Below, one piece after another: positions 6,501 to 50,436 of a stretch of DNA of 52,915 nt. Both the position numbers and the translations under genes were made by a program. Source of the DNA: a virus (lineage: Duplodnaviria > Heunggongvirae > Uroviricota > Caudoviricetes); the IMG/VR virus record IMGVR_UViG_2909288124_000003, positions 1 to 52,915 of that record; one strand, given 5' to 3'. The notes under the pieces were generated by a model, which saw nothing but the letters and a program-made list of their open reading frames with translations, did not search any database and was not told the origin of the DNA. Every line of letters starts with the position of its first letter. The first letter of the stretch is position 1.

Positions 6501-7082
6501 CCAGCCGGACGTGGATTTTGGCAGATCGATACGGTGGTCACGCTGATATTCCGTCGTGGTCTTTCCGTCAAACTTGCCGTTTACAACCGTTTTCCAGGCG
6601 CCGCCGTCCGTTGATAAATCGATCGCATACTCGGTGACCGTGCCCACCATATCGCCATTATCTTTATAGAGATACTGGACCGGAAGGCTGAGCTTGATAC
6701 GGATGGCATCCAGGGAAAGGTTTGTAAACTGGCGCGTCCAGGGCGCGGTGGTGGTGACAGTTGTGCCCACGGCCAGCTCGTTGTCGACCTGGGGCATCCC
6801 GGCAATATAGGTCTGGTCCTGTGTGCCCTTGCGGAACTCCCATTTCACGCCGCTGAAGTTGTATTCCCCGCTGTCGTTTGCCAGCGGCGTATCGTTGAGA
6901 AAAATGTTCTGAGCGGTCAGGTCGCCCTGTATTTCCCCCTCAGAAACGGCAATGAGCATTTTTAATTTTGCGACCGACAGCAGATCGTCAGGCTGCTCAA
7001 CCGGAGTATGTGAACTGCCACCTCCCCCTTTGGCACCCTGCAGGATGGTTTCTTGTTTAAGAAGCTGCATTTTTTCACCCAT
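3591..7082 (-). CDS. Tail tip / host specificity protein J (central tail fiber)
   Basis: 1163 aa with the lambda J N-terminal region; the length matches lambda J (1132 aa). Confidence 0.85.
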   Translation of the reverse strand: MGEKMQLLKQETILQGAKGGGGSSHTPVEQPDDLLSVAKLKMLIAVSEGEIQGDLTAQNIFLNDTPLANDSGEYNFSGVKWEFRKGTQDQTYIAGMPQVDNELAVGTTVTTTAPWTRQFTNLSLDAIRIKLSLPVQYLYKDNGDMVGTVTEYAIDLSTDGGAWKTVVNGKFDGKTTTEYQRDHRIDLPKSTSGWSVRVRRITADASGSNSKLVNAFKVFSYAEVIDSKLRYPLTALLYVEVDSSQFNGSAPKVTCKIKGKLIKVPDNYDPKTRTYSGSWSGGFKMAWSNNPAWIFYDLVLDEIYGMGTRVDASMVDKWALYSIAQYCDEMVSDGAGGTEPRFTCNVFIQSQEDAWQVLNDLAAVFRGITFWGNDQIYVQADVPQDDVDWVYNVSNVIDGLFTYAGGSYKNRYSSCLVSWSDPQNHYSDTVEGVYDSALVERYDVRQTSLTAIGCTSQSEAHRRGRWVLLSNAKDGTVSFGVGLDGYIPLPAEIIGVADPFRSGKENGGRISAANGRQITLDREIDYAAKDRLVVNLPDGKAQTRTISAVSADKKTVTVATAFSQVPVAGAVWAIDSDNLAIQYFRVTSIAANDDSTGGFTITAVQHDPNKYRYIDDGVRVESPPITVTPISVLSAPKNIVVTESDHVSQGLTVASLDVSWDKVEGAIRYVAQWRKDNGDWINVPVTSAQGFSVQGIYSGSYDVRVRALNAQDTSSPWGYGETTYLSGKTGKPGTPLNFLATEDVVWHIDLTWKFPDGSGDTAYTEIQRATTADYANPELLVLVPYPAADYQHGPMPAGVRQWYRARLIDRIGNAGDWTDWIMGTSSIDVSEITNDILEDMKESETFKDLIENAVDSNEKIAGMADEIKNHADELEQQAKDILENADGLAQAEVKIDEISVSMDGMTGGVKNSSIAVIQNSLAQVTSRRSQTATNNGNVAKIDRIDTTIADTSQAVARALVTLDASAGGNVSNATDLTETLADFTQASATKINSLTVTVNGQTAAINQTAQAVADVNGNLNAMYNIKVGVAANGQYYAAGMGIGVQNTPGGMQSQVIFLADRFAVTTQAGAVVSLPFVIQNGQTFIRETFIQDGTISNAKIGNFIQSNNYVAGSVGWKLDKSGTFENYGSTAGEGAMKQTNQTISVKDGNNVLRVQVGRLTGVF

Positions 7083-25772: not shown

Positions 25773-26210
25773 GTTGCCAGTTTTCAATGAAGATAATGCG
25801 GGCAAAAAAAGCCTGCTCGGACGAACAGGCATGAAAAATAACAATACCGTCAAGGAGGTGGCGCCGGGTGCCTCCCGGTGGAACAGCCCCAGCCGACTAG
25901 TTCCGCGCAAACAAACCTGGACAAAAAAGTTTGACTGGACGCCCCGCCGCATAGGGGGATTCACCACGAACCAAAAGATAAAATCATCCGGTGACCGGGG
26001 CAATATCTAACCGGAACTTTTCAGAATCACTTATTGTTTCCTGGAGAGTACATGAGCGTTGGTGAATTCACGTGATGCTTTTGGATGAGCGCTGAACCCA
26101 AAGGTCAGTATTTTCACACAGCAATTTTGCAAAAAGCAGCGCCCATTCAAAACCAGGTCGCTTTCCAGTCACTCCGGGGACCCCATCATCGCAGACCGAA
26201 AAGCTTAAAC

Positions 26211-26285
<75 letters not shown>

Positions 26286-26288
26286 ATA

Positions 26289-26364
<76 letters not shown>

Positions 26365-26366
26365 AG

Positions 26367-26440
26367 TGGTCCGCCACCGGAGCCTCGAACCCCGTACCAC
26401 AACACCTGGGTTGCCGCTCTTCCCGATGAGCTAGTGGCGG
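26367..26440 (-). tRNA. tRNA-like sequence with non-canonical anticodon arm (possible pseudo-tRNA or unusual tRNA)
   Basis: Canonical acceptor, D and T arms and CCA, but the anticodon stem pairs only with a 6-nt loop (CCAGGU) in my manual fold; 74 nt. Confidence 0.4.
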
Positions 26441-26442
26441 TC

Positions 26443-26519
26443 TGGTGGCCCTTGCTGGACTTGAACCAGCGACCGGGCGATTATGAGTCGCACGCTCTAA
26501 CCAACTGAGCTAAAGGGCC
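26443..26519 (-). tRNA. tRNA with CAU anticodon, tRNA-Ile2 (lysidine) type
   Basis: Anticodon loop CUCAUAA; sequence resembles E. coli ileX-type tRNA rather than initiator or elongator Met. Confidence 0.65.
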
Positions 26520-37665: not shown

Positions 37666-37770
37666 GTGTTCTCCTATGACTAAGCCTGCATCAATACTAC
37701 TCATAGTAGCAATTATTAGCAACTTAAAATAGAAATGACAACTATGCCTTGTGCGCTTAATCTTCTACTT
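37666..37770. promoter_or_regulatory. Immunity region (OR-like) between the Cro-like and cI-like genes, with palindrome CTACTCATAGTAG at 37697..37709
   Basis: Divergent intergenic region; the CTACT...AGTAG half-sites recur in the promoter at 38560..38589. Confidence 0.5.
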
Positions 37771-38454
37771 ATGGTGGAAAATGCTAAATACAAAGACTTT
37801 GCCGAAAGGCTAAACAGGTCTCTCCAAGAGCAATCTATTGGAGTTAAAGAATTGTCAGAGTTCAGTGGTGTCTCGTATGAGATGGCGCGGCGCTACACTC
37901 TTGGTACTGCAAAGCCGAGAGATGAGAAGATGATTCGAATTGCAGAAAGACTTGCCGTCTCACCGGCTTATCTTGATTATGGTGTGCCTGTTAATGGTGG
38001 CGACGCGCCAGCCAAAGGCACGGTCAGAATAGAGCAATTGGATGTTCATGCTTCAGCCGGTTCCGGATATATAAACCAACCATTCCCTACAATAGTGAGC
38101 TCAATAGAGATTCCAGAAGAGAGGATCTTCGAGTTGTTTGGTCGTAGAAGCCTTGATGGCATCGTCATGATAAATGTTGATGGCGATAGCATGATGCCCA
38201 CGCTTTGCCCAAAGGACCTGCTTTTCATAGACAGCAAGGTTGAACAATTCAGCGGCGACGGCGTTTATGTGTTCAATTTTGAAGACAGTACGTTCGTTAA
38301 ACGTTTGCAGAAGGTAAAAGGGCGCCGACTGGCAGTTCTTTCAGACAATGAACATTACCCGCCCTTCTTCATAGAGGAGCATGAAATGAATGAACTATAC
38401 ATATTCGGCAAGCTAATCAGATGCTTACCTCTAAAAATGATAGAGTTTGGCTAA
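37735..38454 (+). CDS. cI-like repressor (HTH plus S24 LexA-type autopeptidase domain)
   Basis: N-terminal HTH and C-terminal S24 domain with the GDSM serine and VKRL lysine motifs. The start may be at 37771 instead. Confidence 0.8.
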   Translation: MTTMPCALNLLLMVENAKYKDFAERLNRSLQEQSIGVKELSEFSGVSYEMARRYTLGTAKPRDEKMIRIAERLAVSPAYLDYGVPVNGGDAPAKGTVRIEQLDVHASAGSGYINQPFPTIVSSIEIPEERIFELFGRRSLDGIVMINVDGDSMMPTLCPKDLLFIDSKVEQFSGDGVYVFNFEDSTFVKRLQKVKGRRLAVLSDNEHYPPFFIEEHEMNELYIFGKLIRCLPLKMIEFG

Positions 38455-38473
38455 TAATTAATTCATCAAGAAA

Positions 38474-38494
38474 CCGGCGAAAGCCGGTTTTTTT
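38474..38494 (+). terminator. Rho-independent terminator after the repressor gene
   Basis: CCGGC-GAAA-GCCGG hairpin followed by TTTTTTT. Confidence 0.6.
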
Positions 38495-38559
38495 ACGCCT
38501 CAAATTCCTCACCTCATAACACTACACTACTAAAAATTTCATTTTTCTACTTTTTGTTG

Positions 38560-38589
38560 TTGCAATTATCTACTTAAAGTAGCTATAGT
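38560..38589 (+). promoter_or_regulatory. PL-like sigma70 promoter (TTGCAA, 18-bp spacer, TATAGT) with embedded operator palindrome CTACTTAAAGTAG
   Basis: Hexamers and palindrome read directly from the sequence. The palindrome at 38570..38582 shares half-sites with the one at 37697..37709. Confidence 0.5.
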
Positions 38590-38698
38590 CATTGCATCGA
38601 AAGCGAACAGGCAGGACGCCCACGAAGTAGCCGCCGGTGGCATATGAATAACCGGATGATTCGCTGACAGAAAACTTAGGTTGGGGGTAGAGGTTTAC

Positions 38699-39064
38699 AT
38701 GAATCATTTATTCACATGCTCATTTTGCGGAGCAACCGAACTGGGAGCGATAAAGATCGTCGCAAAAGGTGGTAAGGACGAACCTGCCATCTGTTCGGAA
38801 TGCGTAGTCACATGTGTAGAAAAAATGATCCTGACTAAAAAATCAGAGGCTGAAAAACCAACCTCTGATAACGAAATAATATCAGTCGATAAAAAACTAT
38901 TTAAAGAGCTTCTTCAGCTTGTCCTCAACCATCCTGATTTCGGAAGTAAGCTGGCTGCTGTTGACATTGATAGTAGCTCCACATCGACAAGTGAAACTTT
39001 TGTTCGACTTGAGCCAAGCGATTTTCTTCTTCGTCTTAGTGCCGCACTTAGGGCATGCGGGTAA
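38699..39064 (+). CDS. ClpX zinc-binding-domain-like protein (zinc ribbon) in the lambda N position
   Basis: LFTCSFCG...AICSECVVTC resembles the ClpX N-terminal zinc ribbon (CSFCG...ICDECV..C). ATG at 38699 with RBS GGGGTAGAGG. Confidence 0.5.
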   Translation: MNHLFTCSFCGATELGAIKIVAKGGKDEPAICSECVVTCVEKMILTKKSEAEKPTSDNEIISVDKKLFKELLQLVLNHPDFGSKLAAVDIDSSSTSTSETFVRLEPSDFLLRLSAALRACG

Positions 39065-39446
39065 CGTAATTTCCTGGTTATCAAAAGCGCCCATAAACAT
39101 CCCTCTTGGTTGTGTGAGAACACCAAGATACCACCACGCCTGATGTGGTTAAAAGCAGGCCAAAGCAATAACAAGTACTTCCCTGTTCTGGCGGCCCGGT
39201 GTTTTCCCGTGTATTTCCGGTAACCGCCAGCCTTTTTCAGGGCACAACGATGAGAACATTGACGAGCAAGGCATAAGTGCTGGTTCGATTCCAGACAGTC
39301 CCATTTAGTTGGGAGGGTTGGGCAGGGAAAAGGTTCGTTCGATTCGAACACCGGCAATGTTCTCTTCGTTGTGGTGAATTGCAGTCCATCGAGACAACCA
39401 GAAGACAAGCGCCTGGCGCCACAACTTGAATGCTGCGTGAAGTGTT

Positions 39447-39492
39447 GGCGGTACCAGTTACATCCCATCAATTAGCTGGTACCGCCCTTTTT
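39447..39492 (+). terminator. Strong rho-independent terminator inside the structured non-coding region
   Basis: GGCGGTACCAG...CTGGTACCGCC (11-bp stem) followed by CTTTTT. Confidence 0.55.
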
Positions 39493-39678
39493 ACACAACA
39501 GAAAAGGGCATCACCGGGCGACGGGCTCATAACCCAATCCACCCGGGCAAAAAGAAAGCGGTCTCTCAAGCCGCCGACCAATGCAGGTGCCCTTCTCTGT
39601 TGTGTATGGAGAAAGTTCGGCGGTGGCAGCCGCCTTAACTTCGTGTATGGACTAAAACCTTGTGCAGAGGAAAGTTAA

Positions 39679-40596
39679 ATGAAATTACCTAAGTTCCGTA
39701 ACGCAATCGTGTACCGCGCCACACTACCTAGCATTGAAGCTATCGAGGGGCATCTGCTTGAACTCCCCTACTCCGAGATTGGTGAAACTGAGTTTTCACG
39801 CGCCTCTTTTGTGCCAAACCCGATCACTGGCGAATTGGTCACCCCAATATCAGGTGGGTATGCCATCGTGATCCGCCATGATCAGAAAATCATTCCCCAG
39901 CATGTTGTTTTGAAGGAAGCCGCAGCACGGATCCAAAGAATCGAAGATATGTCCGGGAGTAAAATCAAACGTATCGAACGATTAGCAATTATCGACAGCG
40001 TCCGCGTTGACCTGTGTAAACGGGCATTTGTTAAATCAACGCTGATCCTTGCGTTGTACAGCACCAACGAAAAGCTATTAGTGGTCAATACGACCAATAA
40101 AAATATTGCCGGTATGGCTGTGGCTATGCTGGTGAAAGTTGTCGGTTCCGTTAAAACAGAAACAATCAACATTAGCGATATTAAGAACGGTTTAACTACG
40201 CGGTTGAAAAACTATATCAATGGCGTGGCCAATGCTTTTGAAGGGTTTACCGTCGGCAATTATATCCAGCTGTCCCGCCTTGCCGATCAAAATGAAGTTA
40301 TTCGCTACTCAGCTGAACACGACTCAATTCAAAGCGAGCTAGTTGATAGCCTTAATAGCGGCTTTACCGCTGATAAAATGGAGCTAGCAGGATGCGGTGT
40401 ATCGTTCATCCTCACCGAAAATTTCCATTTTTCGCGCATCAATACCCAAGCCCAAACATTCAACGATGAAGATGATAAAGCATTTCAATGGCGCCATCAG
40501 GCCGGGACGGATCTACTCCAATTCAGCAAAGTAGTAAACCTGATGTGTGATCTTCTTTCGTACAAAGAAGAACAGCCACAAAAACCCGCAGCCTAA
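39679..40596 (+). CDS. RdgC-like recombination-associated protein
   Basis: N-terminal F(K/R)N..VYR motif and overall pattern resemble E. coli RdgC; sits in the recombination module. Confidence 0.55.
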   Translation: MKLPKFRNAIVYRATLPSIEAIEGHLLELPYSEIGETEFSRASFVPNPITGELVTPISGGYAIVIRHDQKIIPQHVVLKEAAARIQRIEDMSGSKIKRIERLAIIDSVRVDLCKRAFVKSTLILALYSTNEKLLVVNTTNKNIAGMAVAMLVKVVGSVKTETINISDIKNGLTTRLKNYINGVANAFEGFTVGNYIQLSRLADQNEVIRYSAEHDSIQSELVDSLNSGFTADKMELAGCGVSFILTENFHFSRINTQAQTFNDEDDKAFQWRHQAGTDLLQFSKVVNLMCDLLSYKEEQPQKPAA

Positions 40597-48033: not shown

Positions 48034-48098
48034 TTAAGCGTGAGCTACGTGAAATCTAATTTTTGATGTTGGTATCTGTTCAGAAGATTTCACGTAGC
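48034..48098. repeat. Conserved intergenic palindromic element, copy A
   Basis: TTAAGCGTGAGCTACGTGAAATC and GATTTCACGTAGC (13-bp perfect inverted repeat) flank a 29-bp spacer, about 20 bp upstream of the RBS of the 48014..47241 gene. Confidence 0.6.
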
Positions 48099-48187
48099 AT
48101 TCGACTATTCATAGTTGAATCGTCATACTAGATAAAGATTAATAGATTGCCATGTGTGGCAATAAATATTAGTAGTTCTAACATTGT

Positions 48188-50287: not shown

Positions 50288-50352
50288 TTAAGCGTGAGCT
50301 ACGTAAAAAATAATTTTTGGTGGGTATATCTGTTCAGAAGATTTCACGTAGC
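50288..50352. repeat. Conserved intergenic palindromic element, copy B
   Basis: Same element as 48034..48098 (shared TTAAGCGTGAGCTACGT and TCTGTTCAGAAGATTTCACGTAGC), about 20 bp upstream of the tape-measure RBS. Confidence 0.6.
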
Positions 50353-50436
50353 ACACATACAAAAAAGGGAGAAACTACCGAATAATATCGATAATCTCTC
50401 CCCGTGTTATAGATTCGATTAGAAGCTAATCTCAAA

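Follow-up and report, generated by a model that had tools for sequence, protein, structure and literature searches.

Several small phage RNAs with tRNA-like features are cut from longer transcripts by host RNases, some of them beside tRNA genes; they include the regulatory C4 RNA of phages P1 and P7 and the CI RNA of P4, which are matured by tRNA-processing enzymes, and the stable 'species 1' and 'species 2' RNAs of the T4 tRNA cluster. DicF, a small RNA (sRNA) of the Escherichia coli prophage Qin, comes from a 190-nt precursor that requires RNase III, and its 53-nt form requires RNase E (Ragunathan et al., bioRxiv 10.1101/2023.04.14.536235). Here we analyse positions 39065-39678 (614 nt) of the IMG/VR record IMGVR_UViG_2909288124_000003, a member of the Caudoviricetes; 'the window' is the whole stretch of 52,915 nt, and features are on the + strand unless stated otherwise. 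The region lies between the gene in the N position and an RdgC-like gene. It is non-coding, is under selection for the structure of its + strand RNA, has a layout homologous to that of the dicF locus and contains exact copies of parts of tRNAs. In our view the region is probably an untranslated part of the early operon that is conserved and akin to the dicF locus, and that carries a DicF-like sRNA and two folded RNAs, termed here elements A and B, which copy tRNA parts.

By sequence, two prophages have a counterpart of the gap: Qin in its ydfC-dicF-dicB gap and e14 in its 'ymfH' region. Like the Qin locus, the stretch studied here is an untranslated operon gap downstream of the cI-type repressor gene of a lambdoid prophage, and it has the same CACAAC...GUUGUG stem, tRNA-like spacers and an sRNA hairpin of the form GGCGG...CCGCC followed by a U-run. 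The order in Qin is a stem, the sequence that follows A in Salmonella phage F1055, DicF and then another tRNA-like spacer. The Qin stem at the position of A has 7+2+13 bp (CCAUAAC-GCGAAAGCGCA.../...UGCGCUUCCG-GUUGUGG), and in the alignment Qin and F1055 share GUUGUGG.A.CCGCGAAAUGGCGCGGCGGUAAGUAUGGCGGG after P1, the closing stem of A. The loci differ in that Qin has no intact element A and no element B after dicF, whereas the present phage has no dicB downstream and its sRNA has a different 5' seed, an Rfam score of 17.7 against 48 bits and no ftsZ complementarity. A and B resemble the C4, CI and T4 RNAs in being small phage RNAs with tRNA-like features, but the structures that bound them are RNase III-type duplexes of ~20 bp and not acceptor-stem mimics, and no similarity to these RNAs was found in sequence or in Rfam. 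Full-text searches found, in the library covered, no paper with the A or B sequences and no prior description of them. The region as a whole is a relative of a known locus, while A, B and the modular design of an RNase III-type stem enclosing a cargo of tRNA parts appear to be undescribed.

An earlier note on this DNA, made from the sequence alone, had described the region as GC-rich, highly structured and devoid of a convincing open reading frame (ORF). No credible ORF is indeed present: the only sizeable ones are 38914-39471 (- strand, 185 aa) and 39430-39678 (+ strand, 82 aa), and neither has a Pfam match. Homologues of A are 127-138 nt long and those of B are 90, 92, 93, 111, 112, 114 or 115 nt long; these indels do not come in multiples of three, so that a reading frame is not maintained across the region. 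The folding of the whole 614 nt is well beyond chance, with a minimum free energy of -222.9 kcal/mol against -191.2 +/- 5.9 for shuffled sequences (z -5.35, reached by 0 of 20), whereas the next 614 nt, coding sequence of rdgC, give a z of only -0.46. Folded separately, element A has a z of -4.5, element B of -6.85 and the hairpin of the DicF-like terminator of -6.15; a first hairpin followed by T5 (z -1.8, 12 of 200 shuffles), the region of a palindrome (z -1.35) and hairpins further upstream at 39104-39160 (z -0.9) are weak when taken alone. The description as GC-rich holds relative to the flanks (0.49-0.52 against 0.41-0.46), but in absolute terms the rise is merely moderate. All of the individual sequence features that had been listed are present to within 1 nt; what had been missed is a second T-arm mimic (39333-39349), the 19-bp stem that encloses both mimics and a further stem-enclosed module at 39493-39605.

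Element A (39243-39373, 131 nt) was delimited as an inverted repeat, by its fold and by a covariance model, and is a four-helix RNA. Its closing helix P1 (39243-61/39355-73) has 19 bp with one conserved mismatch. Within it follow the junction J1/2, the invariant ACGAGCAAGG; helix P2 (39280-83/39291-94) with the loop UUCGAUU (39284-90), giving CUGG-UUCGAUU-CCAG, the first T-arm mimic; a variable hairpin, P3 (39299-303/39310-14); the junction J3/4, GGGUUGGGCAGGGAAAAG; helix P4 (39333-37/39345-49), again with the loop UUCGAUU (39338-44), giving GUUCG-UUCGAUU-CGAAC, the second T-arm mimic; and the junction J4/1, ACCGG. The T-arm-like motif that had been noticed earlier, GCTGGTTCGATTCCAGAC at 39279-39296, is real and is the first of these two mimics.

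Copies of A were collected by a pattern scan of IMG/VR together with the covariance model; at least 61 distinct copies score 111-174 bits. When these 61 copies are aligned, 95.5% of the cells pair, double changes occur at 15 of the 32 pairs and 162 cells are compensatory. None of 500 shuffles reached the covariation score, and slid partners pair in just 37-54% of cells. Covariation extends to an extra pair, in the 'gap' of P1 (A-U in 33 copies, G-C in 14, C-G in three and U-A in one), which leaves a single conserved mismatch. G.U pairs far outnumber A.C pairs (91 against 17), which places the constraint on the RNA of the + strand. Among the unpaired parts, the junctions ACGAGCAAGG, UGGGCA..GAAA and ACCGG show little or no variation, and both T-loops read UUCRAUU, flanked by G...C, in 61 of 61 copies, varying solely at R, the equivalent of tRNA position 57. 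The elements of a tRNA T-arm, a 5-bp stem closed by G53-C61 and a loop U54-U55-C56-R57-A58-N-N, are found twice in A. No complete tRNA cloverleaf is present, as the Rfam tRNA model (29 bits) gives only a truncated match of 13.9 bits over the first T-arm, and ARAGORN calls no tRNA within the gap. Scans with Rfam 15, a check that the earlier note had proposed, were run at the gathering threshold and at E<=10 on the whole window and on each sub-region; for the gap they returned no family at the gathering threshold, and below it the partial tRNA match and a DicF match alone, so that element A has no family in Rfam 15.

Three further interactions within A were considered and rejected. Kissing of the two UCGA loops would allow no compensation, R being A in 29/61 and 25/61 copies; an alternative pairing of CGAGC with the first T-loop proposed by RNAalifold has three C.A mismatches against one compensatory change; and in a search for tertiary contacts by mutual information two clades dominate the signal, just the extra P1 pair (columns 12-150) being convincing. 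It is our guess that the invariant GG of J1/2 and J3/4 dock on the T-loops, in the manner of G18-G19 in tRNA.

One of the closest parallels to A is YrlA, a bacterial Y RNA with a long terminal stem, a permuted tRNA-like domain with a canonical T-arm and a variable central hairpin (Chen et al., 2014; PMC4201824). A shares this layout, and the correspondence extends to the imperfection of the terminal stem and to a second invariant arm (PMC4201824). A might thus be imagined as a Y RNA that binds Ro60/Rsr by its terminal stem and presents the tRNA-like domain, a reading that we find very unlikely. The Ro-binding motif GNCGAAN0-1G, which in YrlA lies near the 5' end, occurs in 0 of 61 copies of A, there is no Rfam match, and the arm in the place of the D-arm is a second T-arm. 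The 25 commonest families of neighbouring genes are those of phage immunity and early functions, and no Ro-like gene, and hence no link to rsr, was seen among them in a survey made without a domain scan. Most of the host genera are not known to have Rsr, which also counts against the Y RNA reading.

Element A is spread over phages of the Enterobacterales that otherwise have little in common. By megablast, ~39238-39380 is ~91% identical to unannotated DNA in the otherwise unrelated phages Stx2a_1447/WGPS2, 1720a-02, Edwardsiella EPP-1, Salmonella F1055, 118970_sal3, Uetakeviruses of the SPN1S type, Klebsiella Kp4866-6 and Citrobacter phiNP. Prophages of Buttiauxella, Edwardsiella, Izhakiella, Brenneria, Ewingella, Rouxiella and Yersinia carry A as well, and 78 of the 5426 complete E. 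coli genomes have a single, unannotated copy each. Of 98 non-redundant loci, 87 have a repressor gene of the cI/LexA type upstream of A and on its strand, at a median distance of 788 nt; Stx2a_1447, phiNP, EPP-1, F1055, sal3 and 1720a-02 share this layout. The genes downstream differ from locus to locus (DUF2303-like, HD-domain or RdgC), and among the 25 commonest neighbour families there is no conserved protein partner beyond the immunity genes.

In phages of the SPN1S type the block has moved out of the early region to an islet flanked by the terminase and portal genes; it is made up of upstream sequence, A, a genuine tRNA-Arg directly adjoining P1 and a DicF-like hairpin. Other contigs have A chained to tRNA-like modules that lack either an anticodon or a D-arm, and the 5' acceptor strand of such neighbours overlaps the last four bases of P1 of A. 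The anticodon-less module, found chained directly to A in IMG/VR contigs L022 (~1810-1925), L025, L075 (~6640-6760) and L104, combines the acceptor UGUGGUG/CACCACA and D- and T-arms of normal form with a conserved insert of ~60 nt; its anticodon arm is replaced by a tetraloop hairpin of 5 bp that covaries, and it escapes detection by ARAGORN. Stems with the P1 sequence of A also enclose unrelated or B-like cargoes in L143 (3640-3729), L089 (668-759), L025 (2196-2287), L116 (10013-10105 and 10835-10921), L024 (10659-10757) and L078 (7400-7519). A common P1 sequence around different cargoes suggests a superfamily of stem-bounded RNA cassettes.

Such arrays, in which real tRNAs stand beside partial tRNA-like modules, raise the question of whether the region is evolutionary debris, that is, functionless remains of phage tRNA genes or of the tRNA-derived half of an old attachment site, the latter a possibility that the earlier note had raised. 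The sequences are clearly tRNA-derived, and the e14 region adjoins xis-int. A remnant of attP would be expected to hold a contiguous 3' part of a host tRNA gene and to lie at the prophage end, beside the integrase gene, but the tRNA parts here are non-contiguous and lie in covarying helices. Compensatory changes maintain the four helices of A, in 61 copies from many genera, and the stems of B; the unpaired junctions are invariant across genera; and the position is fixed relative to the repressor gene, ~0.8 kb after it in 87 of 98 loci. We therefore regard decay as a most improbable explanation.

Element B (39493-39605, 113 nt) is likewise an inverted repeat. Its P1 (39493-39512/39586-39605) has 20 bp with one mismatch; inside this lies P2, CCGGG/CCCGG here and CCGGR/YCCGG across the copies, which is followed by an inner hairpin (39523-35), GGG-CUCAUAA-CCC, and a variable hairpin, GCGGU..GCCGC. 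In an alignment of 16 diverse copies 97.3% of the cells pair and seven pairs have double changes, and the covariation score is reached by 0 of 500 shuffles; the covarying helices are P1, P2 and the variable hairpin. Conservation of structure in related phages is visible as compensatory changes in both A and B. The inner hairpin copies a part of initiator tRNA: together with the C before it, it forms CGGGCTCATAACCC (39522-35), which agrees in all 14 nt with the anticodon arm of the tRNA-fMet encoded by E. coli metZ, with the three G-C pairs beside the loop CUCAUAA that mark an arm of the initiator type. When the loop was left unconstrained, C-A-U was found to be kept in 92 of 100 distinct phage copies of B, and variation was confined to positions 32, 37 and 38, the last two varying in about 20%. 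The proposal that the region might hold one or more sRNAs is supported as regards small or structured non-coding RNAs, and beside the one tRNA-like motif of the note there are a second T-arm mimic and a copy of the initiator anticodon arm.

A query consisting of 39425-39640 has matches in 2809 of 5426 E. coli genomes; one hit spans >=80% of the query, and most comprise the DicF-like hairpin and the 5' half of B. The match in K-12 is in prophage e14, between a cI-like gene and xis-int, where RefSeq annotates the coding sequence ymfH; this annotation (L130, 2378-2689) overlies the DicF-like hairpin and element B. The indel pattern among the homologues indicates that ymfH is not a protein gene, and its annotation in K-12 is probably a mis-annotation. 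That the present region encodes a protein, be it the YmfH-like 82-aa product or the 185-aa product of the - strand, is hardly credible: the ORFs exist, and RefSeq lends them a precedent in e14, but they belong to no Pfam family, the indels in the homologues are not in triplets and the substitutions compensate for one another in RNA helices.

Between A and B lie a spacer and the DicF-family hairpin. The spacer, module D (39368-39425), is a reduced tRNA-like module in which an acceptor-like stem, GUUGUGG/CCACAAC, surrounds a GCGCCUGGCGC hairpin; it includes the palindrome GCGCCTGGCGCC (39409-39420), which had been noticed earlier. The 5' strand of D overlaps the 3' end of P1 of A, and the two pairings are therefore mutually exclusive. 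Larger versions of D, with a covarying D-arm-like hairpin, follow A in other phages and flank dicF in Qin, and by homology D would be the 5' part of a DicF-like precursor. The putative DicF-family sRNA (~39426-39492) begins with an unpaired 5' seed (..AUGCUGCGUGAAGUGUU); this is followed by a hairpin of 14 bp, GGCGGUACCAGUUA/UAGCUGGUACCGCC, which together with a U-run makes an intrinsic terminator. This is the 'strong terminator' of the earlier note; its stem (39447-39460/39473-39486) and T-run (39488-92) are as described, but they belong to the DicF-family hairpin and are not a bare terminator. The position and shape are those of DicF, namely an operon downstream of a cI-type repressor and a GGCGG...CCGCC hairpin with a U-run, and the scaffold UU-GGCGGUAnCAG...CUG..CCGCCCUUUU is common to K-12 DicF and 13 other phage copies. 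The seeds differ: most of the 13 other phage copies have a conserved non-DicF seed, GCUGUGUGUAGUCUU, and the window has GCUGCGUGAAGUGUU.

As a target of the DicF-like RNA, ftsZ is not supported, the pairing being no better than random. Elsewhere in the window a 14-bp palindrome (GCTACGTGAAATCT...AGATTTCACGTAGC) occurs in two copies, at 48040-48100 and 50294-50354, in gaps between - strand genes, and one of its arms can pair with the DicF-like 5' seed at 15 of 16 positions, including two G.U; as a single independent match with three DNA mismatches, for which 0.47 are expected, this is not statistically significant. At 39484-39509 the end of the terminator, GCCCUUUU, is complementary to AAAAGGGC in the 5' strand of P1 of B, and after read-through a hairpin formed by the two could compete with the closing stem of B.

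The setting of these modules is that of an early-left operon. The cI-like gene (37735-38454; HTH_3 and Peptidase_S24 by Pfam) and its terminator are followed by a predicted early-left promoter, PL (38560-38589; TTGCAA-18-TATAGT, from a scan for a sigma-70-like consensus), which sits between this gene and the ORF in the N position and would transcribe the region rightwards. The repressor gene upstream on the same strand and the predicted PL together would make the modules part of the early-left transcript. B lies directly 5' of the first early-left ORF, whichever ORF that is, and a RUGGAGAAA motif comes directly after it. This arrangement is what one would expect if A and B were purely a cis-acting leader that controls the processing, stability or translation of the mRNA of the downstream early-left genes. 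B, at 50-75 nt upstream of the first ORF, would then be an operator that mimics initiator tRNA towards the 30S P site, initiation factor 3 (IF3) or methionyl-tRNA synthetase (MetRS), and the long stems would be RNase III sites that set mRNA stability, with no need for a role in trans. The survival of P1 stems in cryptic prophages where the cargo of A has decayed points in the same direction. Against it stand the occurrence of A outside early operons, in the SPN1S-type terminase-portal islet abutting tRNA-Arg, and the invariance of the junctions and T-loops of A, which exceeds the needs of an RNase III site. On balance we judge an exclusively cis-acting leader to be unlikely, albeit with a real chance of being correct.

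The same location in the PL operon, the presence of two terminator-like hairpins to be read through and the many relatives without an N-like ORF also suit a processive antitermination RNA similar to put or nut, as had been proposed. The put RNA of HK022 has ~70 nt and two stem-loops and lies directly after PL, with a similar second copy after PR (PMC9378689). Although put, which acts through the zinc-binding domain of RNA polymerase beta', resembles the modules described here in being structured and encoded in cis, in the early operons of a lambdoid phage that lacks N, the size, fold, copy number and promoter distance are all wrong: A has 131 nt and four helices, B is a multi-helix structure of 113 nt, and their starts lie ~650 and ~900 nt away from the predicted PL. 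Moreover, phage records and genomes have A in one copy only, and A occurs in a non-early context as well. A lambda-type nut site would have a boxA core, (C/U)GCUCUU(U)A, followed by a boxB hairpin, but no such core ([CT]GCTCTT) was found in 38400-39700; a boxA in the 3' strand of P1 in 15 of 61 copies of A, which is absent from the window, arises by chance from the stem sequence and was discarded as a candidate. Antitermination by A and B is thus improbable, and a better candidate for such an RNA than 39065-39678 is the leader of ~75 nt (38592-38670; AGCGAACAGGCAGGACGCCCACGAAGUAGCCGCCGGUGGCAUAUGAAUAACCGGAUGAUUCGCU) directly after the predicted PL.

This PL leader is 80-97% conserved in ST64B, SfII, SfV, ZF40, YeP1-3, mEp460, phiNP, F1055 and others. 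It has no Rfam match and no second copy in the window (38590-38685 searched), and no similarity to HK022 was found in the 8 kb of HK022 compared, a stretch that possibly does not contain PL. The protein in the N position (38699-39064, 121 aa) is not N-like; it has a borderline N-terminal ClpX-type C4 zinc finger (zf-C4_ClpX, 26.2 bits against a cut-off of 27), and Stx2a_1447 and phiNP are among the relatives without the gene. In phiNP no N-position ORF is annotated between the repressor gene and the PL leader.

Returning to the reading of the gap as a relative of the dicF locus, we envisage it as a small-RNA cassette of the PL operon, whose + strand transcript would start from ~38560-38589, with the N-position gene upstream and rdgC downstream, and would contain as a chain of modules the terminator-like hairpin, A, D, the DicF-family hairpin/terminator and B. 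Both closing stems resemble RNase III substrates (a duplex of ~20 bp, often with an internal mismatch), P1 of A having 19 bp and P1 of B 20 bp. By analogy with Qin, for whose stem alone the evidence is experimental, host RNase III would cut these stems of ~20 bp. If 190 nt are measured upstream from the 3' end annotated for DicF, the RNase III cut falls, by our own arithmetic, at 945/946 of L133, in the 3' strand of the Qin stem; the equivalent cut here would lie near 39361/39362 and would leave a precursor of ~131 nt ending at the terminator. RNase E would then, by homology, trim the fragment set free to yield a DicF-like sRNA that acts by base pairing and has its 3' end at its own terminator. 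The last step is the weakest: the excised cores of A and B may persist as stable RNAs whose tRNA mimicry acts on host factors that recognize tRNA, and the cuts may also separate the mRNA of rdgC and the genes beyond it from the part upstream. We infer that the role of A and B is either tRNA mimicry in trans or control in cis. As a speculation to which we attach only a small likelihood, A and B, together with the chained anticodon-less modules, would be decoys excised by RNase III for counter-defence, A copying the T-arm/elbow twice and B the initiator anticodon arm; they would titrate or mislead host enzymes and toxins directed at tRNA, for example nucleases of the VapC type that cut initiator tRNA or enzymes directed at the T-loop.

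Several observations weigh against the model of a small-RNA cassette. The copies are closely related and the alignment was fitted to the model, so that the covariation counts overstate the number of independent events. Approximately 20% of the copies of B have U and not A at the equivalent of position 37, which makes the mimicry imperfect. The match to Rfam DicF (RF00039, 39434-39487) has 17.7 bits and an E of 0.16-0.74, below the gathering threshold of 48 bits. The complementarity of the DicF-like RNA to ftsZ (RNAduplex, a crude whole-molecule test) is -22.6 kcal/mol against a shuffled mean of -29.7, whereas K-12 DicF gives -38.5 against -32.0. The link to RNase III consists of positional homology to Qin and length arithmetic. 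Finally, Qin and e14, which are cryptic prophages, retain the stem of A, whereas its tRNA-like core has decayed or been replaced; a stem that outlasts its core may be the functional part, with a dispensable cargo.

A and B are two strongly constrained RNA structures, absent from Rfam 15, in the early operons of many temperate enteric phages, and the stretch with the DicF-like hairpin and B, which matches about half of the complete E. coli genomes, is annotated as a protein gene in K-12. The dicF locus now looks like one decayed case of a wider polycistronic array of non-coding RNAs with RNase III-type stems and tRNA-like joints. If the mimics act in trans they would represent a new kind of phage RNA effector; if they act in cis alone they would still explain the processing of early operons. 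The structures raise the questions of which partners bind the double T-arm RNA and the initiator-anticodon mimic, whether these are pseudouridylated or methylated as tRNAs are, and what effect they have on translation initiation, tRNA-directed toxins or phage development.

The remainder of the region flanks these modules. At its upstream end (39104-39160), alignment and sequence show a hairpin, H1 (CUUGGU..ACCAAG), and a P0 region (ACCAC/GCCUG/GUGGU/CAGGC); e14, F1055 and sal3 have homologous sequence immediately before A. By eye, 39130-39160 (ACCAC-CAC-GCCUG-AU-GUGGU-UAAAAG-CAGGC) might fold either as a hairpin or as a pseudoknot of the H type whose third loop is A-rich, and the same pseudoknot-like arrangement is seen 5' of the position of A in e14, F1055 and sal3. 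The terminator-like hairpin that follows (39188-39238) had been described as a long imperfect hairpin with TTTTT, and it is as stated: CTGGCGG (39188-94) pairs with CCGCCAG (39225-31), followed by CC and by TTTTT at 39234-38 (CC-UUUUU in the RNA). In other phages A is preceded by the small P0 hairpin, of which this one is a replacement or an extension, and the GGTAACCGCCAGCCTTTTTCAGGG junction is also present in the IMG/VR contigs L011, L016, L034, L052, L063, L084 and L091-93. Downstream of B, 39606-39678 contains the conserved RUGGAGAAA motif, a hairpin, GGCGGUGGCAGCCGCC, and a Shine-Dalgarno sequence (GAGGAAAG) that belongs to the RdgC-like gene; this gene has its start at 39679 and scores 114.6 bits for RdgC in Pfam.

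At a distance from the region, on the - strand of the window (25800-25992 and 26211-26519), an STnc100 sRNA (71.7 bits) lies beside a cluster of tRNA-Gly, tRNA-Thr and tRNA-Met; one ARAGORN call in the same cluster (26367-26440) has an abnormal two-base anticodon.

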